Notes under the pieces: model-generated
The model's input: the letters and a program-made list of their open reading frames with translations, nothing else
What the model was told of the DNA's origin: nothing
Databases searched by the model: none
Assembly (NCBI GenBank): GCA_964345045.1
Contig: CAYFPM010000003.1
Location: 70,038 to 134,037, forward strand
Direction: 5' to 3'
Length of the DNA: 64,000 bases
Origin: an uncultured Gammaproteobacteria bacterium
GTDB lineage: Bacteria; Patescibacteriota; Patescibacteriia; Magasanikbacterales; UBA922
Translations under genes and position numbers: made by a program
Shown here: positions 11,181-62,899 of the stretch, piece by piece
Layout: each line of letters begins with the position of its first letter
Position numbering within the stretch: position 1 is the stretch's first letter

Positions 11181-11182
11181 AA

Positions 11183-11965
11183 TTATTTTTTTATTTCAAA
11201 TTTTTCGTATTTTTTAATTCCCATACGATGCAAGATACACTTGGACATTACATCCAAAGTCATAAAACCATAAACCACGCTTTGACGAAAATTTGGTGAT
11301 TTTGATTCTTCGGTATAACGAGTTGGGATCCCGATTTCTGTTACTTTAAAATCCCCCAAGGAAAGCTCGGCCAACATCTCGGTGTCAAACACATAATTGT
11401 TGGAATTTTTTTCGAATGGAACTTTTTGCAAAAACTCTTTGGTATAAGCACGGTAGCCAGTATGATACTCACTCAATCCCAGATGAAGAACTGCTTCTTC
11501 TATTTTGGTAAGCGCAATATTGGCAACAAATCTCCACCACGGCATACCACCTTTTCTAGCTTCGCCCTTTACGTGCATGCGAGAACCAAAACAGGCTGCT
11601 GTTTCTGTACTTGCCAATTTTTCCACCATTTTTGGAAGTAAAGTAGGATCATATTGAAAATCAGAATGTACCATTACCACAATATCTGCCCCTAGTTTGA
11701 TAGCTTCTGTATAACCGGTTTTTTGGGCAGCTCCATAGCCTTTGTTTACTTCGTGATTAACCAAATGCACATCTAGATTTTTGGCAATTTCCTCTGTCTT
11801 GTCACGACTACCATCGTTGACTACCAAAATAGTATCTATTATATCCTTTGGCAAAGCCTTTACTGTTTTTTCCAAAGTTAATTCTGTATTGTAGGCTGGT
11901 ATAAAAACCACCACTTTTTTATTTTGAAACATACTACTTTTAAGGAGTAATTTAATTTTATACAA
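11183..11965 (-). CDS. Glycosyltransferase family 2 (Dpm1-like polyprenyl-phosphate sugar synthase type).
   Basis: VVVFIPAYNTELTLEKTV...VVNDGSRDKTEEIAK is a GT-A signature. An alternative ATG start at 11932 (MFQNKK) is possible. Confidence 0.8.
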   Translation of the reverse strand: MYKIKLLLKSSMFQNKKVVVFIPAYNTELTLEKTVKALPKDIIDTILVVNDGSRDKTEEIAKNLDVHLVNHEVNKGYGAAQKTGYTEAIKLGADIVVMVHSDFQYDPTLLPKMVEKLASTETAACFGSRMHVKGEARKGGMPWWRFVANIALTKIEEAVLHLGLSEYHTGYRAYTKEFLQKVPFEKNSNNYVFDTEMLAELSLGDFKVTEIGIPTRYTEESKSPNFRQSVVYGFMTLDVMSKCILHRMGIKKYEKFEIKK

Positions 11966-12063
11966 AATCTATTCTTTTTTATAAATAAATAATCTGCGTA
12001 GTCCTTTCAACAAAATCAGTGAAATCAGTGCTCATTAAAACAAAAATATTCTTTGGTGTCAAC

Positions 12064-13458
12064 TTACAAAACTCTGGTTAGCCTATCCAAAACTGTTCCA
12101 AAATTTATAAAAAAATCCAACAAAGAAACTAGAATTAAAAATGAAAAAGTGTACAGAAGACTTTTTTCTTTGTACCATTTTTTATTCTGCATACTTTTGT
12201 AAATCATGTAACCAGCAAAAAGTACTAAAAAAGGATAAATCTGAAACCTGTACCTAGATTGAACCACCGTTGGCAAAAGTACTAGTGGTGAGGTAGCGGC
12301 CATAACTGCTAGGTAATAAAAAATGGTTTTTTTCTTTTTGAGAAGCTCTACCAAACCAGAAAACCCAGCTAGAAAAACTCCGGCAATCCACACTAAGGAA
12401 CTAAAGACTACCGCACCTTCTCCCAAACCACTTTGGTAAAACCAAAAACCCATTGGCCTAATTAAACTAAAAAAGCGGATAAACCTAAGAAAGGTTAATT
12501 TGATAAAAACAAATGGATGGTTTAATAAAAACATTTTGAATTCCATACCTGCTTTTTCTTTTAGACCAAAAAAACCATTTTCATTTACATATTCTCGCAA
12601 AGGATTGTAGCCGTCTGCCAATTGGCCGCCATCGGCTTGTAGAGTATTCCCCACCCAAATATTAAACTCTCCGATCATGGTGGTAATGATAAGCTGATTG
12701 TAAATTAAGTAATTGCGAATTACCCATGGTGAAAGAGCGGCAAGAGCGGCAAACAAAAATACTGCCCCAGCTTTGTAAGATTTTTTTTGTATGTATAAAA
12801 ATAAAAAAATTGGAATAAAAAGTAAGATTGGAGGTCTCGTTAGCACCGCCAAACCGGTTATTAACCCAGATACCAGTGCAAGACAAATGTTTTTGTGGTC
12901 TTCATAGACTTTTACAAAAAGAAAAAGCGTCAACACTGTAAAAAATAAATACAAAGTTTCTGTCATGAGCATGGCCGAAATTTCGATTAAGTCTGGCCAA
13001 AAAGCAAATAAAGCTGCTGAGATTAGGGCAATATTTTTCGCCCCCTCCCCTGTCATCCCGAGCATAGCGAGAAATCTTTTTCTAATGTCTTTTTTCTCAT
13101 CAAGCTCTATATTTGAAAAAACCCTCAATGCAATCAAATATATTAACCAAACTGAAACGGTGTGAAGCAAAGCTTGGATAATCCAAACTACTTCGTAATG
13201 GTGACCAAAAATTTTGTAAACTCCCGCCAAAAAATACTCATAGCCTGGGCCAGCCCTCACTATAGCATTGTCCCACTCGTAGCTTAGGCTGCTATCTTCG
13301 CGAAAGCCAAAACCATCGACAATATTTACAGCAATTACGTCGTAAGCCTGTGCGTCCACCACCGGATGGATACGGAAGTAAAACGAATATATTAATGGCA
13401 GCAAAAAAGACAGGACCAAAATCCAAGCTAAAGTTTTGTTTTGTTTTAGTATTTGCAT
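12064..13458 (-). CDS. GT-C-like polytopic membrane glycosyltransferase (ArnT/PMT-like).
   Basis: It is a 464-aa protein with many TM helices. It is a paralogue in architecture to 5538..7232 and 17410..19053, and it follows a GT2 synthase gene. Confidence 0.65.
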   Translation of the reverse strand: MQILKQNKTLAWILVLSFLLPLIYSFYFRIHPVVDAQAYDVIAVNIVDGFGFREDSSLSYEWDNAIVRAGPGYEYFLAGVYKIFGHHYEVVWIIQALLHTVSVWLIYLIALRVFSNIELDEKKDIRKRFLAMLGMTGEGAKNIALISAALFAFWPDLIEISAMLMTETLYLFFTVLTLFLFVKVYEDHKNICLALVSGLITGLAVLTRPPILLFIPIFLFLYIQKKSYKAGAVFLFAALAALSPWVIRNYLIYNQLIITTMIGEFNIWVGNTLQADGGQLADGYNPLREYVNENGFFGLKEKAGMEFKMFLLNHPFVFIKLTFLRFIRFFSLIRPMGFWFYQSGLGEGAVVFSSLVWIAGVFLAGFSGLVELLKKKKTIFYYLAVMAATSPLVLLPTVVQSRYRFQIYPFLVLFAGYMIYKSMQNKKWYKEKSLLYTFSFLILVSLLDFFINFGTVLDRLTRVL

Positions 13459-13540: not shown

Positions 13541-13628
13541 AAAACTGCGCTCCAAAGAACCAAAATGGCTGTCTCTTCCTTAGAGACAACCATAAAATTC
13601 TTTGGAAAGGATAGGAAAGAAAGTGTCG

Positions 13629-14426
13629 AGTAATTTTGTAATCGCCACCACTACTTACTGCAGAGACCCTGCAGATGTCCAGGCTAGACTAACTGTGAGA
13701 ACAGTAAAAGAAGCCCGAAGCAGATTCACCCAAATTGTGGTGGCCGATCGTGGCAGCTCTCCTCAATTTGTAGCTATGCTCAAATCTGCCGGAGCAACTG
13801 TCTGTACTGCAGAAGGATCGCCTGGTCAGGCAACTCGTCTGGCTCTAAAAGAAGCTATGGACAGGGCCACCGGTGGCCACTGTGTAGTCTGGATGCCTTC
13901 GTGGATGTATAAGGCAGTAAGCGCAGCGCGCCAATTGGCCGAGAGAATCCACCACAACAAATTCGACCTTTGCCTGGCTTTTCGGACAGCAAACTCTATG
14001 AAAAGCCACCCCGCAGCTCAAATAGCAGCCGAGACTAGAGTCAATCAGTTTTTCAGAGGGTTGTTACCAGCTCCCAAGGAAGGTAGAAGGGTCAAAAGCT
14101 TCACTCCCCTATTCAAACTAGATCAGTGTGACCCAACCCTTGGCGTGTTTGCTATCGGAGCCAGAACTCTTCCGTTTTTTCTAGAGTATGCGGGCAACTA
14201 TGGCGACAATGTTTGGGATGCGATTCTTGTTCCTATCATGCAAATCATTGCTGACTCAAGCATGAAAAAACGGACTCTTTCAGCTAATCGATACAAGTTC
14301 CCCGAAGAGCTGCTTGGCTTGGTGGAGAAAAGAAAACTTTGGCTGGAACTGGCGGATGTAGAAGAAGCCCTAGTAGAGGAGGCAATCCGACTAGGTTGGA
14401 GGGATTCTCATGACAGACTGTGGTAA
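13629..14426 (+). CDS. Hypothetical GT-A-like nucleotide-diphospho-sugar transferase fold protein. It lies in a compositionally foreign high-GC cassette.
   Basis: The ORF is 13602..14426. I chose the GTG at 13629 because an AGGAAAG Shine-Dalgarno lies 5 nt upstream. The N-terminal VIATTTYCRD...IVVADRGSS resembles the GT-A beta1 strand and a DxD-like region. G+C is about 50% by eye against about 30% in the flanks. Confidence 0.55.
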   Translation, partial: SNFVIATTTYCRDPADVQARLTVRTVKEARSRFTQIVVADRGSSPQFVAMLKSAGATVCTAEGSPGQATRLALKEAMDRATGGHCVVWMPSWMYKAVSAARQLAERIHHNKFDLCLAFRTANSMKSHPAAQIAAETRVNQFFRGLLPAPKEGRRVKSFTPLFKLDQCDPTLGVFAIGARTLPFFLEYAGNYGDNVWDAILVPIMQIIADSSMKKRTLSANRYKFPEELLGLVEKRKLWLELADVEEALVEEAIRLGWRDSHDRLW

Positions 14427-14452
14427 GTACCACCAACCGCTCTTTTCCAAAA

Positions 14453-14479
14453 GAGGATTCACAATCCTCAACCCCTTCC
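14453..14479. repeat. Copy 1 of a short repeat element: a GAGGAT(T)/ATCCTC hairpin followed by AACCCCTTCC, then an AAATTTTAAA tract.
   Basis: gaggattcacaatcctcaaccccttcc lies directly 3' of the first high-GC gene. A second copy is at 15377..15402. Confidence 0.5.
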
Positions 14480-14547
14480 TTGTGTTTTTAAATTTTAAAG
14501 ACAAAAGGAAGTGGTAAAAAACACTTCAGAAAGACAAGAGACATTTC

Positions 14548-15183
14548 GTGAATAATTTCTCTTTTCCTGCCAGAATTTCTTGCCACGGAAGATTCAACTC
14601 CATTCGACTAATCCGAGCTACGGTCCCGATCATACCCGACGAGACAAATGCACTGATCGAATTGCGATGGCAAGAAGAGCTAGCAAGGAATCCTAAACTC
14701 CACAACGGCTCACTTGCAGCCCTGCATGCGCTGAATGCAAAGTGTGATCAACTAGAAGTTCGGTGGTGCGAAAGCAACTACCGAGAGTACCTGGGTGCCA
14801 GTCACCCTAACATCCCAAACGAACACCGACGACTACCTATGAGTGTAGGACTCCTCGTCCGAGTCAACTACTCTAGCTACCTAGTCGCAACTCGCAGTCC
14901 AGGGGTAGACTGGCCACTCATGCGTCACCTCAGCGCAGCTGGCGGAGTCAAAGCCGGTGAAAACCCCTTCGACGTAGTCCTGAGAGAGGCCAAAGAAGAA
15001 CTGGGGCTAGACCCTCATGAACTAGAGCCCCTTTCTTGCCTGGGTGTAGTCGAAGATCTGGTGAGGCCGCAGTACATGTTCGTCTTCGTGGCCGATGTAC
15101 AAATCTCCGAAGCAGAACTGATCAAGAGAGCCGCCGCGGCCCCCTCTGCAGAAGAAAACTGCCAACTTACTTTCCTGGATTAG
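14548..15183 (+). CDS. NUDIX hydrolase (high-GC cassette gene).
   Basis: The Nudix box is canonical: GGVKAGENPFDVVLREAKEELGL matches Gx5Ex7REUxEExGU. The ORF has a GTG start. The true start may be the internal Met at MSVGLL. Confidence 0.75.
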   Translation: MNNFSFPARISCHGRFNSIRLIRATVPIIPDETNALIELRWQEELARNPKLHNGSLAALHALNAKCDQLEVRWCESNYREYLGASHPNIPNEHRRLPMSVGLLVRVNYSSYLVATRSPGVDWPLMRHLSAAGGVKAGENPFDVVLREAKEELGLDPHELEPLSCLGVVEDLVRPQYMFVFVADVQISEAELIKRAAAAPSAEENCQLTFLD

Positions 15184-15376
15184 TTTTCTCTGAAGGCAAA
15201 CATGTCAGCCGATCCACGCTCTTTTGTGCCCGCCGCTTGGGCTGGCGCACAAATGGTCTTGGCAGCACATGACAACAAGCCCCTAGTAGAATGGGATACA
15301 GGAGATAAAGTCAACTATCCTACCTATATGGGTCGCCGCTTGGCCATGGTCAAGCCTTAAATTTATCGTTCATTTC

Positions 15377-15402
15377 GAGGATCTCCATCCTCAACCCCTT
15401 CC
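15377..15402. repeat. Copy 2 of the same repeat element.
   Basis: gaggatctccatcctcaaccccttcc lies 3' of the NUDIX gene region and is followed by caaaattttaaa. Confidence 0.5.
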
Positions 15403-42908: not shown

Positions 42909-42937
42909 TTGACAAAATCGCTTAAAAATGATAAATT
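42909..42937 (+). promoter_or_regulatory. Sigma70-like promoter: TTGACA, a 17-nt spacer, then TAAATT. It lies upstream of the HTH gene.
   Basis: cTTGACAaaatcgcttaaaaatgaTAAATT. TATAAT also appears a few nt downstream. Confidence 0.45.
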
Positions 42938-42971: not shown

Positions 42972-43283
42972 ATGACTGAGGAACACAAAGAAATAGTCCG
43001 AATCTCCATTTCAGAAGCAGCTCGATTGTTTGGGGTAAATGCCCAAACTATTCGTAGAGCTATCAAAAATGGTGAAGTGACCTACGTAGTAGTGGCTGGC
43101 CGATACAAGCTTAATTTTGAAAGCGTTTTGAAATGGTCTCAGAAAAAAACCACTGTCAAAAACAAAACAAATAGATATGGAATTGGCCAATATGTAGACA
43201 AATGGAAAATATCCAATACTCTCTACTCGCCAAACAAAAAAAGCGTCCGGCCTGTGGACGAAAACGAAACAGACAAACAATAA
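42972..43283 (+). CDS. Excisionase-family (HTH_17-like) helix-turn-helix DNA-binding protein.
   Basis: ISISEAARLFGVNAQTIRRAIKNGEV is a typical excisionase/MerR-type HTH. The protein is 103 aa. Confidence 0.7.
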   Translation: MTEEHKEIVRISISEAARLFGVNAQTIRRAIKNGEVTYVVVAGRYKLNFESVLKWSQKKTTVKNKTNRYGIGQYVDKWKISNTLYSPNKKSVRPVDENETDKQ

Positions 43284-43320
43284 ACCCCGATATAAATCGG
43301 GGTTTTGTTTTTGTTATTTT
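43283..43320 (+). terminator. Intrinsic terminator.
   Basis: AACCCCGATataaATCGGGGTTttgtttttgttatttt. Confidence 0.7.
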
Positions 43321-43328
43321 GGAATGAA

Positions 43329-43377
43329 GGTTGGCCCGCGTCCTGCTACAGCCGAAGCTGGAGGACGCGAGCCAACC
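43329..43377 (-). terminator. GC-rich 15-bp inverted repeat. It is a probable terminator or boundary hairpin for the foreign small gene.
   Basis: GGTTGGCCCGCGTCC, then 19 nt, then GGACGCGAGCCAACC. It lies directly 3' (minus strand) of 43395..43703. No clean U-run is present. Confidence 0.4.
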
Positions 43378-43394
43378 TATGGCCGCGAGGAGTA

Positions 43395-43703
43395 CTAGCT
43401 ACCCTCGATCTCGAGGTGGCCGGCACGAGTGTTGGCGTTGTAGAAGCACTGCATCGACATCTCGTTCTGGCCCACCCGCAGGTAGCCCTTGATACAGAAC
43501 ATGCCCGGCGAGCCCGACTCGTACTCGAGTCCGGTAACCCTCACCTGCAGCTCCCGCACGCTGGCTCCGGACGCCATTGGTATGGCGTGGAACGTGAGCA
43601 GCCAGGGCCGCTCCGTGTCGTCGAAAGCCCGAGTGAACGCGTTGATCACGTCCGGGGCACTGGGGTTCTTGCAAGTCTCCTGGATATCGTAGCGAGTGGT
43701 CAT
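43395..43703 (-). CDS. Hypothetical 102-aa protein encoded by a compositionally foreign gene (about 60% G+C by eye).
   Basis: A strong GAGGAGGG Shine-Dalgarno lies 5 nt upstream of the ATG at 43703. The sequence is not low-complexity. The two overlapping longer ORFs are treated as GC shadow frames. Confidence 0.6.
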   Translation of the reverse strand: MTTRYDIQETCKNPSAPDVINAFTRAFDDTERPWLLTFHAIPMASGASVRELQVRVTGLEYESGSPGMFCIKGYLRVGQNEMSMQCFYNANTRAGHLEIEGS

Positions 43704-43756
43704 AAGACCCTCCTCTGTGGCTGTTTTCAAATAGCTGGTGCCACATAACCAGACCA

Positions 43757-43790
43757 AAAAAAATATCACAAAAAAACTCCCCTGTCAAGA
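43757..43790 (-). promoter_or_regulatory. Putative sigma70-like promoter for the 43395..43703 gene.
   Basis: The minus strand reads cTTGACAggggagtttttttgtgaTATTTT, about 55 nt upstream of the SD and ATG. Confidence 0.3.
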
Positions 43791-43881
43791 GGTTTATCCC
43801 AAATTTTGTTATATTAATTCATCCTCCCTCTCAGCACTTGTTTCTACAGGCAAAAAAAAGTATAATTGCCACACATAAACT

Positions 43882-45717
43882 ATGAAATTTTTTGAAAAAC
43901 ACGCCAACAAACACCATCTAATCCATGCCCCACACAAGTGGTTTCTGGCATTTTTAGTCTCCCCTATTCACTACGCAGAGATGCGTTACAAAAAACACTA
44001 TCATCTCAACTTTGCTCACGCCAAAAAATTATTTATTTTCGATAGCTTACTTTTGTTATCTACCTTAATTCTAATATTTGCCACTGTTTTTTGGTTTACT
44101 TTTGATCCGACTGTTACCGACTATATAGAATTAAAAATAAGCGCCAATGGAGAAAGAATCGAAAGTGGAGACAAAATAGATTTCAAAATTAATTTTGAAA
44201 ATAATAGTGACATCGCTATCGAAAATGTAGATTTGCTATTAGAACTACCAGCAAATTTTGTAGCCGAAGAATCATCAAAAGAACCCAGCCAAGACGGAGG
44301 CTTTACCAAGTACGATTTACCAAATATCCTACCCGGACAAAAAGGAAATATAGAGTTAACCGGCCGATATTATCACACCCCAAACAATGAAACAGAATTT
44401 CTAGCGAGACTCTTTTACAAACAAGCAGATAGACAAAGTATCGAACAAAAACTAGAAAAAATAATCTTAGTCTCGAGAGATTCCAAACTAAAAATTGATT
44501 CAAATTTACCGGACAAATTATTGGGTACTGGACAAAAAAATGTCACTCTAATTCTTGAAAACCAAGGTGATCTAGAATTAAACAATATAATAATTCCTTT
44601 GAATCTAACTGCCGGTGTAGAACTAAAGCAACAGACAGAAGAAAATACAAAGGAAATTAAATTGGAAAAACTTTCTCCAGGAGAAATAGTAGAATTGGAT
44701 CTGAATCTAGAAACTAATCTACCAAAAAGCAAAGATCAACTGGAAATCACTGTAAATCCTAGTATAGAAGTATTGGGAGAGAACATCGCCCAAAAATCAC
44801 TAACCAAAAATATAGAATTGGTTCATCCCGAAGCGAGTATTACGGCCTCTTGGAAAAAAGAAAATCAAAATATAAGTCCAGGAGAACAAATTCTATTAAA
44901 TATAAATGTAGAAAACAGAAGTAATGTAAACCTCCAAAATATAGAAATTTTGCTTCCAGTCCCAACTAGTCTGGTAGACGCATTTGGCTTGCAACGAAAC
45001 AATCCTGGTAAGTTACAAAACAATACCTTTGTCTTAAACAAAAATTATTACAAATCGCTAGAGAGTTTAACCGCTGGAAGCTCTACTAATATTGAATTAA
45101 ATATTCCTATAAGAAAAAAAATTACTGCCGGAACCAATGTACAACTTAGCTTATCACCACAGTTAATTGCCGAGATAGAAGGTATACCAGAAGCTAAATA
45201 TAAAAATAATTTTACTTCTAGCAACTTATCTATTGGGACTAATCTATCTATCGATTCTGAATTACGCTACTACACCGATGACTCTGATCAACTTGGTAGA
45301 GGCCCACTACCACCACAAGTTGGAAAAGAAACCAAATACTGGGTGATTTCTAATTTGCAAAATTCCACCAGCCATATTAGTAATCTGAAATTAGAAGCCA
45401 AACTGTCGCCAAAAGCCAAATGGACCGGTAAAAACAGCGTTAGTCATGGCAATGCAGCAGTATACAATGCAAATACTAGAACAGTCACTTGGTCTGTAGA
45501 ACAACTTTTTGCTCACGAAGCTGCCGGTGTTTATTTTGAAATTGGTTTTACCCCCGAGGCTAGCGATATTGGCCAAACCCCAAAACTGATAGAATCTATA
45601 AAAATATCTGCCTACGATGATTTTATAAAAGAAAATTTACAAAAATCTACTGCTAGTTTGGATACTTCTTTACCAAAAGATTCTATTGCCCAAAACAAAG
45701 GAGTGATTGTAAGATGA
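43882..45717 (+). CDS. Membrane-anchored extracellular protein with repeated beta-sandwich (DUF11/CARDB-like) modules.
   Basis: The N-terminus is His-rich and followed by a TM (LLLLSTLILIFATVFWFTF). Modules recur with the patterns IENVDLLLELPANF, NIIIPLNLTAGVEL and NIEILLPVPTSLV. Confidence 0.75.
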   Translation: MKFFEKHANKHHLIHAPHKWFLAFLVSPIHYAEMRYKKHYHLNFAHAKKLFIFDSLLLLSTLILIFATVFWFTFDPTVTDYIELKISANGERIESGDKIDFKINFENNSDIAIENVDLLLELPANFVAEESSKEPSQDGGFTKYDLPNILPGQKGNIELTGRYYHTPNNETEFLARLFYKQADRQSIEQKLEKIILVSRDSKLKIDSNLPDKLLGTGQKNVTLILENQGDLELNNIIIPLNLTAGVELKQQTEENTKEIKLEKLSPGEIVELDLNLETNLPKSKDQLEITVNPSIEVLGENIAQKSLTKNIELVHPEASITASWKKENQNISPGEQILLNINVENRSNVNLQNIEILLPVPTSLVDAFGLQRNNPGKLQNNTFVLNKNYYKSLESLTAGSSTNIELNIPIRKKITAGTNVQLSLSPQLIAEIEGIPEAKYKNNFTSSNLSIGTNLSIDSELRYYTDDSDQLGRGPLPPQVGKETKYWVISNLQNSTSHISNLKLEAKLSPKAKWTGKNSVSHGNAAVYNANTRTVTWSVEQLFAHEAAGVYFEIGFTPEASDIGQTPKLIESIKISAYDDFIKENLQKSTASLDTSLPKDSIAQNKGVIVR

Positions 45718-54209: not shown

Positions 54210-54243
54210 AAAAAATTTTTCCAAATAGAAAAGGAAAAGAAGC

Positions 54244-55737
54244 ATGAATCACAGCTACGAAATTTGGTCCAGGCAACTGATAAACGCGGCAGACAAGGCC
54301 CTCCAAGATGTCGCTGCCCAACGAAAGCCCAACATGGGCTGGTGGCAAAGCTACTTGAAGCAATACAAGTTGCTAGGTGGAAAAACAGAAAAACTAGAAC
54401 GCTCTCCGGTGCTCGAGGCGGCCAACAATGTCTTTCATGTTTGGATAGCTCTTACCAACAGTATTCCGCTGTTGGTAGGGGTAGAGACAGGTATGGCCGA
54501 TCGCCACTACCTAGAAGCCTTTGTCCCAGACGAGTTCTTGGCGGCTATGACCGCCATCTTCTACGACATCTTGCCCCCTCACCAGAGGAATATCCTCATC
54601 AACAACCTGATTACGGCTCGTTTTCAAGAGGCTGCGACACCCTGGATTGCAGACCAGCGACAGCAGGCTCCGCAAACTCTAGAAAACACAAATATAAACA
54701 AGAGAGAAAATCTCTATCGAGAAATTCAAGCTCTTGCTAGGCTTTGGTTTGCTTCCACCAAGTTCGATCCTTTACCTCAGGCCGCTATCCAGTTCGGGCC
54801 ACAGGGGATCGAGCTAGATGCCACTCGATCGGAAAAAGTTGCTCACAATCTTTTGGCCAGTGAATTTGGTTTTGGTCCGGGTGGAGACCCCGAACCAGAA
54901 CACCGTCGCTGGGCCAAAAGGGTGATTGCCCAGTGTCGACACCGGCATCCTTGGGCTAGACCAGAGCGACTCGAGCGCTACACCGATGCCTTGCAGACGG
55001 TTCGAGACTACTATATTGGCGAGGATTCTGGAGAAGCTAGCGAGAAAATCCGTGATCAGGCCGAGAGGATGATGAGTTCTTTTGGTCTAGATGACGATTT
55101 TGCCTTGATCATGATCTTGGCAGAAGCTTTGGCACTAGCCACTGACTTTTTCTTGCACCCCAATATGTCGAACGAAGACAGGCTACGGGTGGTAGAGCAC
55201 ACCACTTACCAGCAGCTAATTCACAATGAGCTGAACCAACACGAGTGGCGAGTGATCTTGCATACTTTCTTGAGCATTGCCAGCAAAGGATCTCCTCTGG
55301 GAGTTCTTCGTATCGAACAGCTAGATCCGGATCTAGAAGAGGCATTGCAAACCAGGTTCAGAGCTATGGCTCTCATGTTCATGAAGGATCATGACTACAC
55401 GGTCAAAGAACCTCTGCACGTCTTGGCCGAACAAAAAGCCAACAGCCGTATGGCCAAAGCCAAACGTTTGGCAATGAGCAGCTTCTGGTGGGTCTTGCGC
55501 TTTGTACCGGTCTTGCTTTTCTCACGCGACCGAGCCAAGTTTGCTGCCAAGTGGCAGGAACTGCGCTCTATCTGGGGTCTACCTCCCAAGCCAGTCGAGG
55601 AAGTGGTAGAGACAGAGGCTTTGCCAGAGTCGGCCGACAAGACTGATCCTACAACAGAGGATGTAGAGACCACCGGCGATGTTGCCGAGGTCATCCCCAT
55701 GCGTTCTGCGGTTGGGGATCGTCCTTCCGAAAAATAA
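54244..55737 (+). CDS. Hypothetical soluble 497-aa protein of no recognisable family (elevated G+C).
   Basis: The long ORF is in a different frame from the Arg-rich overlapping ORF 54180..54740. Tandem terminators follow it. Confidence 0.65.
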   Translation: MNHSYEIWSRQLINAADKALQDVAAQRKPNMGWWQSYLKQYKLLGGKTEKLERSPVLEAANNVFHVWIALTNSIPLLVGVETGMADRHYLEAFVPDEFLAAMTAIFYDILPPHQRNILINNLITARFQEAATPWIADQRQQAPQTLENTNINKRENLYREIQALARLWFASTKFDPLPQAAIQFGPQGIELDATRSEKVAHNLLASEFGFGPGGDPEPEHRRWAKRVIAQCRHRHPWARPERLERYTDALQTVRDYYIGEDSGEASEKIRDQAERMMSSFGLDDDFALIMILAEALALATDFFLHPNMSNEDRLRVVEHTTYQQLIHNELNQHEWRVILHTFLSIASKGSPLGVLRIEQLDPDLEEALQTRFRAMALMFMKDHDYTVKEPLHVLAEQKANSRMAKAKRLAMSSFWWVLRFVPVLLFSRDRAKFAAKWQELRSIWGLPPKPVEEVVETEALPESADKTDPTTEDVETTGDVAEVIPMRSAVGDRPSEK

Positions 55738-55751
55738 TTAGCTAGTAGTTT

Positions 55752-55848
55752 GGTACGAATAGTATTCGTACCTCCCATTCCTTTTGTTCTAAAATTTTTA
55801 GACCAAAAGCAAATAAAAAATCCTGAGTTACACTCAGGATTTTTTATT
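55752..55848. terminator. Tandem terminators between convergent genes.
   Basis: GGTACGAATagtATTCGTACC with a T-rich tail is at 55752-55790. aaaaaaTCCTGAGTtacACTCAGGAttttttatttc is at 55815-55848 and is bidirectional. Confidence 0.65.
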
Positions 55849-55980
55849 TCTCACTAAAACTTTTTTGCAAAGTTTTACTGGGAAGGTACGCCGGGCCGGA
55901 GCAGCTACTCGAGTTTCATCCGAAGATGATCCAAGAGAAGTGCTCCGGCCCTGGTTTAGGCGCGGACGATGAGAAGCTTG

Positions 55981-57957
55981 CTACGGACAGCCGTCGTCAG
56001 GCACACCGTTGCAGTCGTTGTCGTACCCCAGGTCGGCCGGGTTGGCGGGATCGCTCTCGCACCACTCGACCGCCCCAGGATGGTTCTGGAAACCCGTCGG
56101 GGTATCGTCGCAGTCACCACCGAGCAACTGAGAGACCGGAATCGAGCTGTTGCTAGACCCTCGACAAGGCGACACCTCGCAGTAGCCGTCCCCGTCGTCG
56201 TCCCAATCGTCCGCCGTGCCGTCGCTCTGCGGACCACCGTTGGCACCACTGGCACCATACGGCGTCCTACCGCGCTGATCCACGTAGGGCGCGCACAAGT
56301 TGCACGCCCAGTACGAACCGGCGGGGCAGGTCTGCTGCTGGGTGCAGCTACCACCCGTGGCCACGCACATGTCGGTGACCTCGTCGCAGACCTGACCGGC
56401 ACTGCAGGTGACCACAGTGCCCGACTGGCAGGTACCGCTCTGGCACGTCTCCGTTCCGTTGCAGTACGAACCATCGTCACAGTCCGCGTTCACCGTACAC
56501 TGCGGCGGAGCCGCGGCGCAGTCGGGATCGTCTCCGTCGACGAGCCCGTCGGCGTCATTGTCCCAGTTGTCCGTGCAGTTGCCAAAGGCCTGGGTCTCGG
56601 GCTCGAAGGCCCCATCCCCGTCGTTGTCCTCGGCGCTGGTACAGACGTGACCCGTGGGCGTGGTCGTCGCAGTGTTGGTCGACGAACAGCCCCAGAGGAA
56701 GCCGGCCGGCAAGTTCGCCGGGGTGCGGTTCTCGAGGGGAGATCCGTTCCCGGTGATACCAGTCGGCGTCTGCATGCATTCTGCGTCCGAGGTCGGACCG
56801 TTGCAACAGTCGGGAATCCAGGACTGAACGCACTGACCGTTGACCGCCCCGTGCGTGGTGCACGCGTTGTTGTCGGCACAGTCCACGCACTGGTTGCTCT
56901 GGCAGGCGAAGCCCACCGCACAATCCGCATCCGTGGCACAGCCCAAGCACGTACCGGCCGTCACCCCCGAGATGTCCGAACACACACCGCTGGCGCAGTC
57001 GTTGTGATCGTCACAGCAGAGGGGGTTGGTGCTGGCCGTGTTCACGCAAGCGTGATTCACGGCGTTGTCGGTGGTACAGGCGTCGCCGTCGTCGCAGTCG
57101 AGAACCGTACAGATGTTCGCGGTGCAAACTTCGTCGGTACGACAGTGGGCGTCCACGAGACACTGCTCGCAGGTACCCGCCGCCGAGGTCGAGGTCTCGG
57201 TACAGAACAAGCCGTCTTGGCACGGAGCCGAGGCAGGCGCGGCGTTGCAACAGTTGGGAATGGCCTGGTTCACGCACCCCATCGTCCCGACGGTGTCCGT
57301 GGTGCAGGCGTTGCCATCGTCGCAGCCGGTGCAGGTGTCGGTGGTATCATCGCAGTACTCGGTAGCGAGGCAGGCACTGGCGCCGCTCTGGCAGGTACCG
57401 GAGACCATGTCGCAGGTCTCGGCACCGTTGCAGAAGAGGCCGTCACTGCAGTCCGCGTCCGAGAGACAGCTGACGCAGCGATCGCCCGCCTCGTCGCACA
57501 TCTCGGTGGCGGCACACGGAGGCGCGGTCACTTGGCAGGTACGTCCGGTGGTGGACGTCCCCACGCAGGTGGCGCTCCCGTTGCAGAAGAGGCCATCGGC
57601 CCCGCAGTCCGCGTCGGAGAGGCACTGACAGCTGATCCCCTCGTCGACATTGCCATCGCAGTTGTCGTCGATACCGTTGCAGATCTCGGTGGCGCCGGGG
57701 TAGACGTTCGGGTTGTGATCGTCACAGTCCGGAGGCCCATCGACGATGGCTCCATCGTTGCAGTTGTTGTCGTAGTACGTCTGATTCGGAGAACCGTCGC
57801 CGTCGCTGTCGATGGAGTTCTTGTCATCGCAGATGTGGACACGGACAGTGCCCGAAACGTTGACGAAGTCGGTACCGCAAGCCGTGAGGCCCGCGGTGAG
57901 CAGGAAGGTGAAGAGAGACAGACAGAGTCGCTTGGCTTGCGCCATGGTGACCTCCAA
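55981..57957 (-). CDS. Cys-rich repeat lipoprotein (658 aa). It carries Myxococcales-type cysteine-rich repeats and MopE-like putative metal-binding motifs. G+C is very high, roughly 65-70% by eye.
   Basis: A GGAGG Shine-Dalgarno lies 6 nt upstream. The lipoprotein signal is MAQAKRLCLSLFTFLLTAGLTAC. Recurring motifs include DCDDHNPNVYPGATEICNGIDDNCDG, CxSDADCxDGLFCNGxETC and CDDGNACTTDxxxxxxC. Confidence 0.8.
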   Translation of the reverse strand: MEVTMAQAKRLCLSLFTFLLTAGLTACGTDFVNVSGTVRVHICDDKNSIDSDGDGSPNQTYYDNNCNDGAIVDGPPDCDDHNPNVYPGATEICNGIDDNCDGNVDEGISCQCLSDADCGADGLFCNGSATCVGTSTTGRTCQVTAPPCAATEMCDEAGDRCVSCLSDADCSDGLFCNGAETCDMVSGTCQSGASACLATEYCDDTTDTCTGCDDGNACTTDTVGTMGCVNQAIPNCCNAAPASAPCQDGLFCTETSTSAAGTCEQCLVDAHCRTDEVCTANICTVLDCDDGDACTTDNAVNHACVNTASTNPLCCDDHNDCASGVCSDISGVTAGTCLGCATDADCAVGFACQSNQCVDCADNNACTTHGAVNGQCVQSWIPDCCNGPTSDAECMQTPTGITGNGSPLENRTPANLPAGFLWGCSSTNTATTTPTGHVCTSAEDNDGDGAFEPETQAFGNCTDNWDNDADGLVDGDDPDCAAAPPQCTVNADCDDGSYCNGTETCQSGTCQSGTVVTCSAGQVCDEVTDMCVATGGSCTQQQTCPAGSYWACNLCAPYVDQRGRTPYGASGANGGPQSDGTADDWDDDGDGYCEVSPCRGSSNSSIPVSQLLGGDCDDTPTGFQNHPGAVEWCESDPANPADLGYDNDCNGVPDDGCP

Positions 57958-58437
57958 TCAAAGCCAGCTTCTCGAAAGATGCTGACGAGTTACAAGTTCT
58001 GGCGCCCCGGAATGGAGCTCCACAATCGTGGTGCCTTGTCCCAGGCGCCTCGGGTCGTTGGGCAGCTAGGTAGCCATCCGCAGAGTTTGGTTTTTTTGTA
58101 GTCATAGAGAGTGCTAACGAAAGATCCAAGTGGTAATAGAAAAAGATACTTCTAATCCACTGCTTTACGCTCAGTATGACTAATTAACAAAAACAAACTC
58201 TGCAGACAACTTGCCTAGCAAAATCTTCTCATCGATTGTAATGAACAATCGTGTCTACTGTTTGAGTAGTGACACATAAAATATTTAGTAAACAACTAAC
58301 TATTTTATCTATCACAACTTTTTTACAAACTCTCTTTTGCCTTCAAACTTTTTTTAAAAGCACAAGAGAATTCGAGGTGTGGGCAGGGCACCTCTTCGAA
58401 CCGAAGTCCGAAGAGGGCCTGCCCACTGAAGCAAGAA

Positions 58438-58851
58438 CTACTGATCGATCGTGACCGTGGTCTGACCACTGTCGCGATTGACGTAGGCGTCGAGGTCGAG
58501 CTCGACCTCGGTCTTGCGGTCGAACCCACCGTTGGCCGCAATGGCTCCCACGGTGATGGCACCGGCGAGCAACAACACGCCGATGCCGATCGCGATCCCG
58601 ATGGTCGTGTTGTGCTCGCGCACGTCACGAGCCACGACGTCCTCGGCCTTGCGGCTCTTCCTGACCCGCTCCACGCACTTGCCGTACTCGGCCTTCTCGG
58701 ACGGATCCGAGAGGTTGAGCGGCACGCACACCGCCTCCGGGCTGGGGAGCCCGGCGGTCGGCGAACGCGGCGTGGTGGCGCAGCCCGAAGCGAAGACCAG
58801 CATGCAGACGAAGATAGAGACGAGACTGTAGAAGAAGTTGTTGTTCTTCAT
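58438..58851 (-). CDS. Glycine-zipper (2TM-type) lipoprotein.
   Basis: An AAGGAG Shine-Dalgarno lies 7 nt upstream of the second ATG. The lipobox is LVFASGC. The C-terminal IGIAIGIGVLLLAGAITVGAIAANGG is a glycine zipper. The start overlaps the stop of the upstream gene. Confidence 0.7.
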   Translation of the reverse strand: MKNNNFFYSLVSIFVCMLVFASGCATTPRSPTAGLPSPEAVCVPLNLSDPSEKAEYGKCVERVRKSRKAEDVVARDVREHNTTIGIAIGIGVLLLAGAITVGAIAANGGFDRKTEVELDLDAYVNRDSGQTTVTIDQ

Positions 58852-58868
58852 GATCTGGTTCTCCTTAT

Positions 58869-59837
58869 TCATCGCACGCCACCACGAACCGCAGTCCGCA
58901 TGCTTCGACGCTCGGCTTCGGCCGCGGTGGCCTTCTGCTCGAGGTTGTCGATGCGGATGTTGTCCCGGTTGTGACCGCTACGCAACAGAGTGATCGCATC
59001 CATGATCGACACGGTATCGGCAGCCCTGGCGGTCGCCTCGTCGACGAACGTCTTGTCCACGGCCGCGGCTCGCGCCTTGGCCGCCTTGGCGTTGGCAGCG
59101 ATCTTGGCCGTATTGGCCTTGATCTCGGTGTCGAGCGCGGTGTGAACCGTCGCCACGTCGCCACGAACCACCGCTTCGCGGGTGTCCGTGTAGGTCTTGG
59201 CGACCCGCTCCGTCTTGTCGATCTTCTGATCGGTCTCCATGTCGTGGAGCTTGCCCGCGAAGTAGGAAACCGTGAAGCCGAACGCGACGATGCCAGCCAG
59301 AGCGCCGATGACGCCCCAGCTCTTGCCACTCGACCACGAGTTCTTCATCTCGGCGCGGGTCTGCGCATCGATGAAGTCCCCGCGCAGGTCTCGCACCTCG
59401 TCGCCGAGGCGCTCGACCTGTCCGATGCGGTGCTGCGACAAGGTGTCGAGCTCCACGCCGTCGCCACCATTGCGCCCGTAGCGCTGCTGGGGACGGCTGG
59501 CCGCATCGAGCTGGTCGCCGAGCGCCCGCTCGGCCACGCCGATGTAGCGCCCGGCCAAGTCCGCGGTCAAGCGGTCGTGGCGCGGCTCCGGCACCTGCAG
59601 ACGAACCTGCGGCAAGTCCACGTCGACCGTGGGCCGCTGGGGCTCTCGGTCGACCACCACCGGCTCACGCCGCGTCGGCCGCTCGCCGACGTAGGTCTCG
59701 TCGATCTGGTCACGGTAGACCGGACCGCCGAAGTGGTGGTGATGCTGGTGCTCGTGTAGCCCTTGGCGTCGAGCGTCGTCGAAGGGATCCTGCCGGGTCC
59801 CGGGGTTCATGTTCAGTTCGGTTGCGTCACCGGACAT
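58869..59837 (-). CDS. Hypothetical bitopic membrane protein. It has a His-rich disordered N-terminal domain, one TM, and an Ala/Lys-rich coiled-coil C-terminal domain.
   Basis: An AGGAGGAA Shine-Dalgarno lies 6 nt upstream of the ATG at 59837. The His-rich tract is HEHQHHHH. The TM is WGVIGALAGIVAFGFTVSYFAG. The gene is co-transcribed with the downstream lipoprotein, overlapping it by 4 nt. The longer ORF-track N-terminus runs into AT-rich promoter DNA. Confidence 0.65.
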   Translation of the reverse strand: MSGDATELNMNPGTRQDPFDDARRQGLHEHQHHHHFGGPVYRDQIDETYVGERPTRREPVVVDREPQRPTVDVDLPQVRLQVPEPRHDRLTADLAGRYIGVAERALGDQLDAASRPQQRYGRNGGDGVELDTLSQHRIGQVERLGDEVRDLRGDFIDAQTRAEMKNSWSSGKSWGVIGALAGIVAFGFTVSYFAGKLHDMETDQKIDKTERVAKTYTDTREAVVRGDVATVHTALDTEIKANTAKIAANAKAAKARAAAVDKTFVDEATARAADTVSIMDAITLLRSGHNRDNIRIDNLEQKATAAEAERRSMRTAVRGGVR

Positions 59838-60364
59838 GGTGTTCCTCCTAGTCCGATCAAGTGCCCGAGAAAAAATCTCAGGCCAGGTTGTAAGTACTAG
59901 CGAAAAATCCGCGCTGCAGGGCATGCCTAGCAGACATGCTTGTCTGGCTACTGCCAGGCATCCCCACAACGGGGGTCCTCTACAAACACGGTTATTAGCT
60001 ACAAAATTTGCAACCAATATTCCGTGTTTGTAAAAGTAGTTCTTGCTTCTTGTAAAGAACCGTGTCAACTATATTTGTGACACCTGAGATATACACCAAA
60101 TTGATATATATTTCAATAGGCACAAAAAACCAATAAAGCATTTTTTAACATCATATAATAGCACATTTTAACAAATTTGTCAAGACTCTTATTAACTAAT
60201 TATTATATTTGTGTGTCTTAATTTTTGTTAAAAATTTGCCTAATTTTAGCTATTTTTACAAGACCTTTTGTCCACAATAATTATTCTGAACAAAAGGAAG
60301 TGGCGGCACTCTGTAGTATCTCTACTATAGAGTGCCGCAAAAAAATGAAGCAGTGTGTGAGGCT

Positions 60365-62617
60365 CTAGCTAGAGCTACCCCCACGAGACGGCCACGGAGA
60401 CCTAGAACCCAATCCAGTCCCCCTAGAGCTATGCTCATCCAAGGCGGCCTGGGACTCCGGATCCAGATCCGTCGACAGACTCACCTCTCCGTTACTCGGA
60501 GCAGAATCGTCGGTATCCCACGAGGGCCTAGGCGTCACCACCGTCTCGGGCAGATCCCGAGGCAGAGCCTCTCGCAAGGGAGGCTCCGGGTCTTGCCCAG
60601 CGTCTCCCGACGATGAGGGCAAGTCCTCGGTGGTTACCTCCGGGTCAGTCTCCTCTGCCGGCGAGGGCAGACGGAACTCCGGAGCATCCAGCCCGAAGGT
60701 ACCTTCGAAGTTACTGATACCGGCAAGCAAGACATCGATCTCGTCGCCAGTACTGCGTTTGAGCTGCTTGGGCATCTCACCAGTCCAGCCCTGGCTCCGC
60801 AGCCAGTCCTCGTTCGGTACGCAGCCGTTCTGGGCCTCTTCGCGGCTGGGCCACGAGAGCGGCCAGCGCGGCAGCTTCTGATCCCCGGCCAAGGCCATGG
60901 CCTCCATGGCGAACACCCTGGAGAGAACATCGGCCAACGAACCTTCGTAGCACTGCTGAGCGTACCGCCGAATGAGGTCGTAGGACACCCCCGGACTCTT
61001 GGACAGAGCTCGGTAGACCGGGTTCAGAAGGCACATCTGAACCGCCTGAAGCATGGTTGGGTAGACCTTGGTACGCAGTTTATCCACAGCCTTGCGAGCG
61101 CGCTCGATGGCCTCCGTGGGATCGACCCAATCGAGAGACTCGAGAGTCTCACGATCGAGATGCCAGGGCCTCTGCCCCAACGTCTCGAGAGGATCGCTCT
61201 TGACCGGCAGGTCGCTGCGCCACGGGGGCACATGGTAGCCGTCGGCCTCCAGCTCTTGCTTGGCCAGGAGAAGCTTCCGTAGGACATCGCCCGGGCCGTC
61301 TTCTCGTTGCCAGTGCTCCGAGAAGGCCTGCTCGAGCTGTGCCGTAGTCTGGCAGTTGCCTTGCGGCGACTGCTGCCCGACCCGACCGATGCGCCACTCG
61401 TGGTAGTTCATGAGAGCCTTCGAGGCTTCTGCCTGGAGGGTCAGATACTTCTTCTCCTCCGGACTCATGAACAGGTACTTCCAAGTCATGGCCTTGTAGA
61501 CCAAGAGCAGAAGCACCACCGCCATGGCGAGGCCAAGGATGACCCAACGGGTCTCTTGGTCTACCTTGCGCAGCTCGGTGAGAGCCTCACTCGTGTCGGA
61601 GTAGCCCCCCTGGTACCAACGCTGATCCGGCTTCTCGGCCTTTACCAGTGCTGCCAAGTCCATGGCCTTGAGCTCTTCGAGCTTGGCCTGGAACTCGGCT
61701 TCCAGCTTGGCCAGAGCCTCTCGCTTGTCCTTGGTATGCTTCTCCTCGAGACCGGGCGTCTCGGCGTCGAAACCAGCCAAGATCGACTCGGTCTGGCCTT
61801 CGTAACTGTCTTGACTCCCGGCTGCGGCACCCGCTGCTCCAGAGAGAGCGGCAGCCGCCGCGGCTCTGGCCGAAGCGATCGAGGCGATAGTGCTGGTACG
61901 GGTACCAGCCCAACGCGCCGAGCGCATGGTCCGACGAGCCCGACGACCTCGAGCCTTGGCACCGGCTCGCCGACGCCGCTCGATTTGGTCCTTGGTAGCT
62001 GCTCGATCCGACTGAAAGGCGGCCTTGGCACCAGCAAGCTGGCCCTCGGCCGCCGTGATCTGGGGCTCGTACTCGGCCTTGATCTTGGCTTCGGCCGCCG
62101 TACGGAGTTCGAGCTCGATCTTGTCGTTCTGAGCGGTCATCCAGCGATCGATGTCGCTTTGGAAGATGGCCATCTCGAAGTACTTGGCAAACCCAAACTG
62201 GATGATGAACACCACAGCGATGTAGACCAGATACTTGAACTTGCTTCCCGAGCTTACTCGCCAACTGTCTGGGCTGGCGATGTAGATGGTTCGGTGCAGA
62301 GCGGCGATGGCAGCTGCCACGAGCAGGCCTGCCAGAATGGCAATGGCCAGCTGCGTGTACAGCCCGTACTGATCCAGGAAGAGGCTCACGTACTTCGCGG
62401 CTCCCACCGCATCATACGCAAACAAGACGGCGAGAATGATGGTGGCGCCCACGAGGACACCTTCCATCTTCTCGGTGATCTTGTCGAAGCCTTTCCGAAG
62501 GAGGAACGGGTCAAAGGGCTTCTTGCCCAAGTTGTCGGTGTTGTTGGTATCCACGAAAGAACCTCCCTTTCTGTGGAGATCGGTGCAGTAGAGACAAATC
62601 GCCTCAAACTGCTTCAT
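60365..62617 (-). CDS. Large hypothetical membrane protein of about 750 aa. It has N-terminal TM helices, a long Ala/Arg/Glu-rich coiled-coil, an internal TM, a C-terminal globular domain and an acidic Pro/Ser-rich tail.
   Basis: The ORF is 60365..62803, with a GTG at 62803 in AT-rich DNA. I chose the first ATG (MKQFEAI, 62617) but the start is uncertain. G+C is above 60% by eye. Confidence 0.6.
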   Translation of the reverse strand: MKQFEAICLYCTDLHRKGGSFVDTNNTDNLGKKPFDPFLLRKGFDKITEKMEGVLVGATIILAVLFAYDAVGAAKYVSLFLDQYGLYTQLAIAILAGLLVAAAIAALHRTIYIASPDSWRVSSGSKFKYLVYIAVVFIIQFGFAKYFEMAIFQSDIDRWMTAQNDKIELELRTAAEAKIKAEYEPQITAAEGQLAGAKAAFQSDRAATKDQIERRRRAGAKARGRRARRTMRSARWAGTRTSTIASIASARAAAAAALSGAAGAAAGSQDSYEGQTESILAGFDAETPGLEEKHTKDKREALAKLEAEFQAKLEELKAMDLAALVKAEKPDQRWYQGGYSDTSEALTELRKVDQETRWVILGLAMAVVLLLLVYKAMTWKYLFMSPEEKKYLTLQAEASKALMNYHEWRIGRVGQQSPQGNCQTTAQLEQAFSEHWQREDGPGDVLRKLLLAKQELEADGYHVPPWRSDLPVKSDPLETLGQRPWHLDRETLESLDWVDPTEAIERARKAVDKLRTKVYPTMLQAVQMCLLNPVYRALSKSPGVSYDLIRRYAQQCYEGSLADVLSRVFAMEAMALAGDQKLPRWPLSWPSREEAQNGCVPNEDWLRSQGWTGEMPKQLKRSTGDEIDVLLAGISNFEGTFGLDAPEFRLPSPAEETDPEVTTEDLPSSSGDAGQDPEPPLREALPRDLPETVVTPRPSWDTDDSAPSNGEVSLSTDLDPESQAALDEHSSRGTGLGSRSPWPSRGGSSS

Positions 62618-62899
62618 TGTGAAATCGGACGGAAAACCGCCCCGAATTGGGAATCCGAGGTAACGGCTTCCACAATTTTTGGCTTGTAATCCACATAAGC
62701 CAAAAATTGTAAAAGCCGATCGGTAAAAAACCGTCCAAACATTATAAAGAACTCCGCTTTGGGTACAATTGTCCCACTTTAAGCGAACGGATAAAGATAC
62801 CACAAAATCAAACTTTTGTCAAGATTTTTTGCTAAATTTAGCTAAAATAAGCAAAAAACGCCCAAAGTAGGACGTTTTTATACTTGTTTAAATTGTTTT

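Follow-up and report, generated by a model that had tools for sequence, protein, structure and literature searches.

Single-gene islets (ORFan insertions) in bacterial chromosomes, the gene cassettes of integrons, and the excisionases or recombination directionality factors (e.g., Tn916 Xis and phage Xis; TIGR01764, HTH_17) are the described systems closest to the locus analyzed here, a GC-rich gene of 102 amino acids (aa) and its neighbor, an "excisionase-family" helix-turn-helix (HTH) gene, in a 64,000-nt stretch of contig CAYFPM010000003.1 (the window, to which unprefixed coordinates refer). With islets, the locus shares a sharp compositional break, foreign codons, conserved syntenic flanks, an empty site in relatives, and a lack of mobility genes; with integron cassettes, an apparently promoterless unit in which a Shine-Dalgarno sequence and one open reading frame (ORF) are followed directly on the 3' side by an imperfect, bulged palindromic hairpin; and with excisionases, the same winged-helix DNA-binding domain, for which the models match above threshold. 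The attC site of integrons likewise lies 3' of the ORF, spans ∼57–141 nt, and is built as R''-L''...L'-R' (5'-RYYYAAC...GTTRRRY-3'). A further likeness is to phage morons and the orphan immunity genes of polymorphic-toxin systems, which are also solitary, small, self-promoted genes of deviant composition, variable location, and strong divergence.

We find that the 102-aa gene is probably a lone horizontally acquired islet, i.e., ∼395 bp of GC-rich DNA carrying a Shine-Dalgarno sequence, the intact gene, and a 3' hairpin, inserted between a conserved HTH_17 gene and a conserved CLIPPER/DUF11 gene. An earlier sequence-only reading had instead taken the HTH gene for an excisionase and the small gene for cargo left by an integrative element, or the two together for a toxin-antitoxin-like pair.

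The GC-rich island and its flanking genes

The features of the locus, in the order in which they occur in the window, are as follows.

42909..42937, plus strand: promoter-like site of the HTH gene, TTGACA-17-TAAATT (consensus scan only, 10/12 matches)
42972..43283, plus strand: conserved host gene encoding an HTH_17 ("excisionase-family") DNA-binding protein of 103 aa, a flank outside the insertion (TIGR01764, HTH_17; same position in the related loci L024 and L026)
43282..43315, both strands: bidirectional intrinsic terminator in AT-rich, host-like sequence (10-bp stem, T-run on each strand)
43325..43722, no strand: GC-rich island of ∼395 nt and ∼62% G+C, holding the Shine-Dalgarno sequence, the coding sequence (CDS), and the 3' hairpin (GC profiles)
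43328..43378, minus strand: GC-rich stem-loop, 17 nt past the stop codon (17-nt arms, −40.5 kcal/mol)
43395..43703, minus strand: 102-aa protein-coding gene of an uncharacterized small-protein family (third-position G+C pattern, 38 homologs, AlphaFold2 model)
43708..43715, minus strand: Shine-Dalgarno sequence GAGGAGGG, 4 nt before the ATG (read from the sequence)
43735..43752, minus strand: small hairpin in the 5' untranslated region (UTR), CUGGU-8 nt-ACCAG, in AT-rich sequence (from the sequence and the minimum-free-energy fold of the transcript; putative role)
43760..43788, minus strand: sigma-70-type promoter-like site TTGACA-17-TATTTT with a TG before the −10 element, in AT-rich DNA outside the island (consensus scan, 10/12 matches)
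43882..45717, plus strand: conserved host gene encoding a DUF11/CLIPPER-repeat protein of 611 aa, the other flank (Pfam DUF11)

The island is sharply delimited by its base composition. G+C content is ∼35% across the first 53 kb of the window and jumps to 60–70% directly past the terminator, from ∼43325 to ∼43722. The 102-aa ORF (43395–43703, minus strand) has 61.8% G+C and is convergent with the HTH gene, and the Shine-Dalgarno sequence stands 4 nt before its ATG, so that the sequence-only reading described the gene correctly in its position, its G+C content (∼60%), and its ribosome-binding signal. G+C content at the three codon positions (GC1, GC2, and GC3) is 0.54, 0.46, and 0.85, and the GC3 value (0.854) lies 16 standard deviations above the mean of twelve neighbor genes (0.276, SD 0.035). 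Glu, Lys, and Gln codons end in G in 14 of 14 cases, compared with 16% in the neighbors; CGG accounts for four of the seven Arg codons, compared with 1/55 in host genes; and Leu is encoded by CTG or CTC without exception. Because GC1 and GC2 are raised too, the amino acid composition also appears foreign. The gene thus departs from its host in base composition, as had been claimed, and in codon usage.

Three long overlapping ORFs lie inside the island, and the codon-position pattern of a GC-rich gene is found in the 102-aa frame only. In the European Nucleotide Archive (ENA) annotation of an identical contig, a 147-aa ORF on the plus strand (43305–43748) is called here; it has a GC1 of 0.72 and a GC3 of 0.54 and is a shadow of the 102-aa gene, whose reading frame is real.

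Comparison with relatives, which the sequence-only reading had proposed, covered two sites (L024 and L026, both from distant relatives): the spacer between the HTH and CLIPPER genes is gene-free in both, measuring 311 nt in L024 and 185 nt in L026 as against 598 nt in the window. Subtracting the ∼395-nt island from the window spacer leaves ∼200 nt, which matches the size of the relatives' spacers. No family member was found by tblastn within ±8 kb of either site, and the small gene is thus absent from the same spacer in two syntenic relatives. Within the window, there is no second copy of the island or of the hairpin sequence, and no att-like direct repeats flank the island.

The island is, judging from the assembled contigs, not an assembly artefact, because four independent sister-sample assemblies are 99.9–100% identical to the window across or into it. 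One of these, a contig of 60.8 kb, runs right through the island and differs from the window by 1 mismatch in 16.7 kb; the other three (L004, L003, and L002) stop inside it, at 43342, 43417, and 43482, after reaching 17–157 nt into GC-rich sequence at 99.9–100% identity. The differing break points probably reflect low coverage of GC-rich DNA, and there may also be strain heterogeneity at the site.

Two models are matched above threshold by the HTH protein, TIGR01764 ("excise"; E = 7.8e-8, 32.6 bits, cutoff 28.8) and Pfam HTH_17 (28.3 bits, cutoff 27), in agreement with the Xis/MerR-like, excisionase-family assignment at 42972..43283 that had been made from sequence. The role read into that assignment did not survive the comparison. 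Both relatives have the HTH gene at the same position, encoding proteins 63% and 75% identical to that of the window, whereas the CLIPPER proteins beside it are just 42–43% identical to the window's; the gene order there is Wzy/TPR, a ∼1200-aa protein, anti-sigma, ECF sigma, HTH_17, CLIPPER, and GT4, with GT4 directly after CLIPPER in L026 and one extra gene between them in L024. Because it is syntenic, better conserved than its CLIPPER neighbor, and host-like in composition (GC3 0.375), the HTH gene is best read as a slowly evolving, conserved chromosomal regulator, not as the directionality factor of an element; the sequence-only reading had itself named such a conserved regulator as a finding that would refute it. 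The protein (window 42972–43283; L024 7351–7689; L026 7477–7815) has an invariant C-terminal extension past the HTH domain, GIGQYVD.WKI.N.LYSP, which suggests a lineage-specific regulator. It may behave more like small MerR/Xis-like regulators such as Streptomyces BldC, although the NCBIfam BldC model matches it only weakly (E = 0.009); a PDB sequence-profile search with it gave no match. Recombinase or transposase domains are absent from the ORFs scanned or annotated at ∼22–64 kb, and ARAGORN finds no tRNA or tmRNA in the whole 64-kb window.

The GC-rich stem-loop has arms of 17 nt (43328–43344 and 43362–43378) that are complementary at 16/17 positions (94%), with an inner 4-bp stem extending the pairing, and its folding energy of −40.5 kcal/mol corresponds to z = −5.9 relative to shuffled sequences. 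This is the feature that had been described as a 15-bp GC-rich inverted repeat bounding the gene. The repeat is there, with arms of 17 nt and one mismatch in place of a perfect 15 bp; it does not bound the gene, since both arms lie together on the 3' side in one stem-loop and no comparable GC-rich repeat occurs at the 5' end. The hairpin is unique in the window, starts 17 nt 3' of the stop codon, and has no U-tract directly after it; it likely serves either to terminate the gene's transcript or, as a 3' hairpin, to stabilize the mRNA. The bidirectional terminator at 43282–43315 would end the HTH transcript and probably the transcript of the small gene too. When the whole small-gene transcript is folded, z = −7.1, due to the two terminal hairpins (the CDS alone gives z = −0.96). 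Rfam gave zero matches at gathering score on the whole window and chance-level matches only at E < 10 on 43200–43900. An element of the miniature inverted-repeat transposable type, or one bounded by terminal inverted repeats, was also considered and rejected: both arms lie at one end, 17 nt apart, and the only flanking inverted match (43299–43320 / 43760–43781, 77%) consists of A/T runs. The 5' UTR of the window gene shows a marginal likeness to that of L019 only (p ∼0.007 before correction for 10 comparisons), and the promoter and 5' UTR may have come with the gene or may be host sequence.

Beyond the island, the HTH and CLIPPER genes sit within a cell-envelope glycan locus of a Candidatus Magasanikbacteria genome (candidate phyla radiation [CPR]/Patescibacteria): the Pfam-matched genes at 22–54 kb encode glycosyltransferases, epimerases, Wzy, PMT, sigma/anti-sigma, and spermine-synthase-like proteins, and the 611-aa CLIPPER envelope protein has 181 homologs, of which the source-named ones come mostly from Candidatus Magasanikbacteria (the closest non-identical one is 45% identical). 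The flanking order in the host is HTH_17 gene, ∼395-nt GC-rich island, CLIPPER/DUF11 gene.

Other compositional irregularities occur in the window and at the related sites. A second GC-rich block of ∼8.5 kb (54241–62680, ∼60% G+C) lies between host-like AT-rich flanks and holds five ORFan genes with GC3 values of 0.55–0.89 and no Pfam/NCBIfam match, the one exception being a cysteine-rich repeat protein of 658 aa (55981–57957, minus strand) with a MopE-type metal-binding motif. This block appears to be a further piece of foreign DNA acquired by the genome, and it means that other GC-rich material is present in the host genome. The region 13600–15400 is moderately GC-rich (49–53% G+C), with plus-strand ORFs at 13602–14426 and 14548–15183 whose GC3 is 0.46–0.52 compared with ∼0.3 for the host and which have no NCBIfam match. 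In L024, a 798-aa ORFan (10381–12777) of ∼54% G+C in a contig of 38% G+C follows directly after the CLIPPER gene, and GC-rich ORFan insertions seem to be recurrent in this Magasanikbacteria locus. The spacer itself contains long inverted repeats in both relatives, with 25-nt arms at 96%, 152 nt apart, in L024 (7713–7914) and with 46–57-nt arms at 72–80% in L026 (7809–7950); the two repeats show no relation to one another or to the window hairpin, and small palindromic elements may have landed repeatedly in the HTH-CLIPPER spacer.

The small-protein family and its codon usage

From 1.84 billion representative proteins, exhaustively scanned, phmmer returned 38 matches to the 102-aa protein at E < 1e-3, nearly all of them 90–110 aa long and aligning end to end at 35–50% identity; the closest homologs are 42–51% identical to the window protein. 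The family is marked by the motifs NPS, AFxxAYD, YESGxPGMF, and GFYNANxRxG, and its invariant columns (P14, A26, Y61, E62, S63, G67, F69, Y88, and G95) are all kept in the window protein. The AlphaFold2 model obtained with the family alignment has a beta-alpha-beta5 topology, with a predicted local distance difference test score (pLDDT) of 93.5 and a predicted template modeling score (pTM) of 0.84. Alignment and model together indicate a rare, uncharacterized family of ∼100-aa alpha+beta proteins, of which the window gene is an intact member.

Searches of Pfam, NCBIfam, PHROGs, and PADLOC returned no meaningful match for the protein or for a 35-member alignment of the family (isolated single-member matches had E values of 0.008 or weaker, and those in Pfam and PADLOC of 0.009 or weaker). 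A PDB sequence-profile search with the small protein gave nothing below E = 0.16, and Foldseek found nothing at E ≤ 0.001 in PDB and BFVD, the best hit being CBF-beta (template modeling score 0.45, E = 0.016). Neither viral contigs nor phage and plasmid records yielded any relatives of the family. When the 102-aa sequence was used as query in a word-indexed protein search, no match came back, its own sequence included; such word-indexed and exact look-ups fail because the island-spanning ENA assembly calls the opposite strand, so that the protein is absent from the collection. This is a family with no Pfam/NCBIfam model and no match among solved structures, for which the wrong strand has been called at least once in public data; a literature search found no publication for project PRJEB17505. 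Because its members are solitary, self-promoted, context-shifting, and strongly divergent, the small protein might conceivably act on its own as an accessory protein with a binding or protective role, akin to immunity proteins or inhibitors, rather than as a pathway enzyme.

Some 18 family loci could be read; the smaller queries gave 4 genome and 6 metagenome loci, the full alignment being too divergent for locus finding. Where flanks are available, most family genes are solitary, with a TTGAC-17-TATAAT-type promoter, a 5' UTR, and a hairpin terminator, and, so far as context is visible, the family appears to be mostly CPR-associated. In L014, a divergent paralog (4827–5255; hhalign probability 90%) without the YESGxPGMF loop lies 700 nt upstream of the family gene.

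A recurrent context is the hrcA-grpE-dnaK region. The family gene is convergent with dnaK in L015, which belongs to a metagenome-assembled genome with the label Candidatus Saccharibacteria, as well as in five contigs that encode a DnaK 75–89% identical to that of L015; Saccharibacteria-type contigs with a homolog convergent with dnaK are L005, L006, L008, L011, and L015/L020 (also L012, L013, L021, and L023). The dnaK-adjacent homologs have in common a ∼95-nt 5' leader that ends in AGAAAGGTGnGnCGtATG and has some covarying stem positions; it may be a cis-regulatory leader RNA. The dnaK-adjacent family proteins are 29–41% identical where the DnaK proteins are 81–90% identical, and family identity in these loci does not track DnaK identity, the signal being noisy. 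The sole close pair, L006 and L011, is under purifying selection, with a nonsynonymous-to-synonymous substitution ratio (dN/dS) of ∼0.1 at saturated synonymous sites (dS ∼1.3).

Other family loci involve tRNA genes. Two of the closest relatives of the window gene with readable DNA, L018 and L019, share a murF / tRNA-Glu(CUC) junction but have the family gene on different sides of it, and both loci contain partial duplications of the tRNA gene, 78 nt at 82% identity in L018 (19–241) and an exact 18-nt repeat of the 3' end in L019 (873–1064), which resemble integration scars. In L028, the family gene is one of at least two small GC-rich genes in tandem, and a 68-nt promoter/leader is repeated at 90% identity (754–821 and 1120–1187) before two unrelated genes of this kind, one of 86 aa and the other the 96-aa family member; a partial third leader (1607–1623) and tRNA-like fragments (1–235) are also present, and the whole resembles a cassette array.

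The codon bias of the window gene has counterparts across the family. GC3 of the family gene exceeds the mean of its neighbor genes in 15 of 16 comparable loci (e.g., 0.85 vs. 0.44 in L018, 0.69 vs. 0.39 in L012, and 0.70 vs. 0.48 in L015), G-ending Glu, Lys, and Gln codons are enriched in all 16, and C-ending pyrimidine-box codons are enriched in 15 of the 16. The dnaK genes on the same contigs show no GC3 shift, and on this ground translational selection for high expression found no support as the cause of the excess. Excess mRNA structure was not detected across 17 family CDSs (z −2.4 to +0.7). Among the tRNA genes in family loci (L016, L018, L019, and L021), seven of seven have a wobble C and read G-ending codons (Glu-CUC twice, Gly-CCC, Val-CAC, Arg-CCU, Lys-CUU, and Ser-CGA); these amount to ∼3 independent cases, and the association may be a coincidence. 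Two readings of the bias remain, namely that the gene has spread repeatedly from a GC-rich reservoir not yet sampled and is incompletely ameliorated, or that selection holds the CDS at a high G+C content. The L006/L011 data fit both, GC3 being raised no further than could be left over after amelioration from a GC-rich ancestor. If the bias were selected and not inherited from a donor, it would represent an unusual, gene-specific form of codon control in organisms with a minimal translation machinery.

Origin of the island

For the window copy, recent acquisition is the better explanation because the site is empty in relatives and the amino acid composition is shifted. The insertion would be recent because there is almost no amelioration, and the DNA, once taken up, would have entered by illegitimate or microhomology-mediated recombination rather than by way of a site-specific element; a one-off event of this kind is suggested because direct or terminal repeats and second copies are absent from the window and because the core-like sites of the hairpin are reversed relative to attC. 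The fragment may have been promoterless and have landed behind a promoter-like sequence of a sort that is common in AT-rich DNA, or it may have brought its own promoter. Transcription would start from the AT-rich TTGACA-17-TATTTT site just outside the island and would end at the gene's own GC hairpin and/or at the host bidirectional terminator; the gene is probably expressed. It should be noted that several points weigh against this account. The GC3 excess is family-wide (15/16 loci), so that GC-richness may be partly selected or intrinsic and perhaps not a mark of recent transfer. The relatives are distant (CLIPPER proteins 42–45% identical), so what they establish is absence in the lineage and not a recent presence/absence polymorphism. 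No donor was found, the best homolog being ∼51% identical over the aligned part, and the tentative guess at a function comes from genomic context, the fold searches having given no significant match.

The family-wide excess, with GC3 above the neighbors in 15/16 loci, G-ending Glu/Lys/Gln codons in 16/16, and C-ending pyrimidine-box codons in 15/16, raises the alternative that the gene is an old resident, i.e., that the GC-rich, rare-codon-rich CDS of the family is maintained in every host, for instance for mRNA stability or tRNA-dependent translation control, and that the window copy is an extreme case in a very AT-rich genome. GC3 is raised in both L006 and L011 even though their synonymous sites are saturated, GC-richness ends sharply at the Shine-Dalgarno sequence, with AT-rich promoters and UTRs in all loci, and all seven tRNA genes in family loci read G-ending codons. 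We nevertheless consider this unlikely, given that the gene is missing at the syntenic site in two relatives, that GC1 and GC2 of the window copy are shifted, that the unshifted dnaK genes make high expression alone insufficient, that the CDSs are not unusually structured (z −2.4 to +0.7), and that the L006/L011 excess fits incomplete amelioration. Rather little credence goes to the broader proposal that CPR-specific solitary small genes, of which the window copy would be the extreme example, are kept rich in host-rare G- and C-ending codons whatever the base composition of the genome, often beside wobble-C tRNA genes (Glu-CUC, Gly-CCC, and others), as a codon/tRNA-gated translational switch or through an unrecognized mobilization of cassettes that land at tRNA genes and intergenic hairpins. 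That the gene is an actively mobile single-gene cassette, the cargo of an unrecognized mobilizing system targeting intergenic hairpins or tRNA genes, and not a one-off illegitimate insertion, seems quite improbable to us: the placement of the gene on either side of murF / tRNA-Glu(CUC) in L018 and L019 with partial tRNA duplications, the tandem small GC-rich genes of L028 with their 68-nt leader repeated at 90% beside tRNA fragments, and the unrelated long inverted repeats in the relatives' HTH-CLIPPER spacer, a possible landing site, all speak for it, but no recombinase occurs in any family context examined, the core sites of the 51-nt hairpin run opposite to those of integron attC, no target-site duplication or terminal repeats surround the island, and the family has no viral, phage, or plasmid matches.

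The remaining accounts carry much less weight. A remnant of an integrative element, with the HTH protein as excisionase, the GC-rich gene as cargo, and the inverted repeat as the element's end, would account for the TIGR01764 and HTH_17 matches and for the foreign composition of the small gene, but is very improbable when the HTH gene is syntenic, host-like (GC3 0.375), and 63–75% identical in relatives that have no island, when neither integrase nor transposase is found at 22–64 kb, nor a tRNA in the window, nor att-like direct repeats, and when the repeat turns out to be a single 3' hairpin. The toxin-antitoxin-like pair that had been put forward as its alternative takes two small adjacent genes, one with a DNA-binding HTH, as its cue; since the genes are convergent and not in an operon, with separate promoters and a terminator between them, since the HTH gene stands without the small gene at the site in relatives and small-gene homologs are solitary elsewhere, and since no toxin or antitoxin family is matched (Pfam, PADLOC), we give it almost no weight. 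Equally hard to credit is the idea that the stretch is a structured non-coding RNA, or that the 147-aa plus-strand ORF is the real gene, with the 102-aa ORF a by-product of high G+C: a GC-rich island in an AT-rich genome is often an RNA gene, the locus has three overlapping long ORFs, and the transcript folds with z = −7.1, but this value stems from the terminal hairpins (CDS z −0.96), Rfam gives no gathering match, and codon-position G+C fits the 102-aa frame only, which has 38 homologs and a confidently predicted fold. The three sister-sample contigs that end inside the island (43342, 43417, and 43482) could point to an assembly chimera in which reads of a GC-rich organism were spliced into the contig; the chance of this is slight in the extreme, however, with a 60.8-kb contig spanning the island, host-like sequence on both sides, broken contigs that are 99.9–100% identical over 17–157 nt of island, and break points whose differing positions fit low coverage better than a graph junction.

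Comparison with known systems

A horizontally acquired islet, as we read the locus, would be an ordinary if clean case, in which one gene, hardly ameliorated, was inserted into a reduced CPR genome and the empty site can be seen in relatives. The "excisionase-family" annotation of an HTH gene next to a foreign gene is no evidence of a mobile element here, the HTH gene being a conserved regulator in this lineage. Compared with Tn916 Xis and phage Xis, the window HTH protein has neither a cognate integrase (22–64 kb) nor att sites and adjoins an ECF sigma/anti-sigma pair; and where Xis proteins travel patchily with their element, this one is conserved, syntenic, and slowly evolving.

The likeness to integron cassettes likewise gives way on closer inspection. 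The window hairpin is 51 nt long and reads 5'-GGTTGGC...GCCAACC-3', with core-like sites reversed relative to attC, and we rejected an attC reading because GTTGGC stands at the 5' end and GCCAAC at the 3' end, the wrong core-site order (read directly from the sequence). Neither intI nor a cassette array was found near the island (recombinases, 22–64 kb). In comparison with phage morons and orphan immunity genes, the family occurs without phage or toxin context in ∼18 loci, has no phage or viral matches, and matches no known immunity or anti-defense domain. A codon/tRNA-gated switch, were there one, would be the mirror image of bldA/TTA control in Streptomyces. From the known single-gene islets, the locus departs in the extreme contrast for such a small piece of DNA (GC3 0.85 vs. 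0.28), in its CPR host, and in belonging to a family that is GC3-richer than its host in almost all loci examined.

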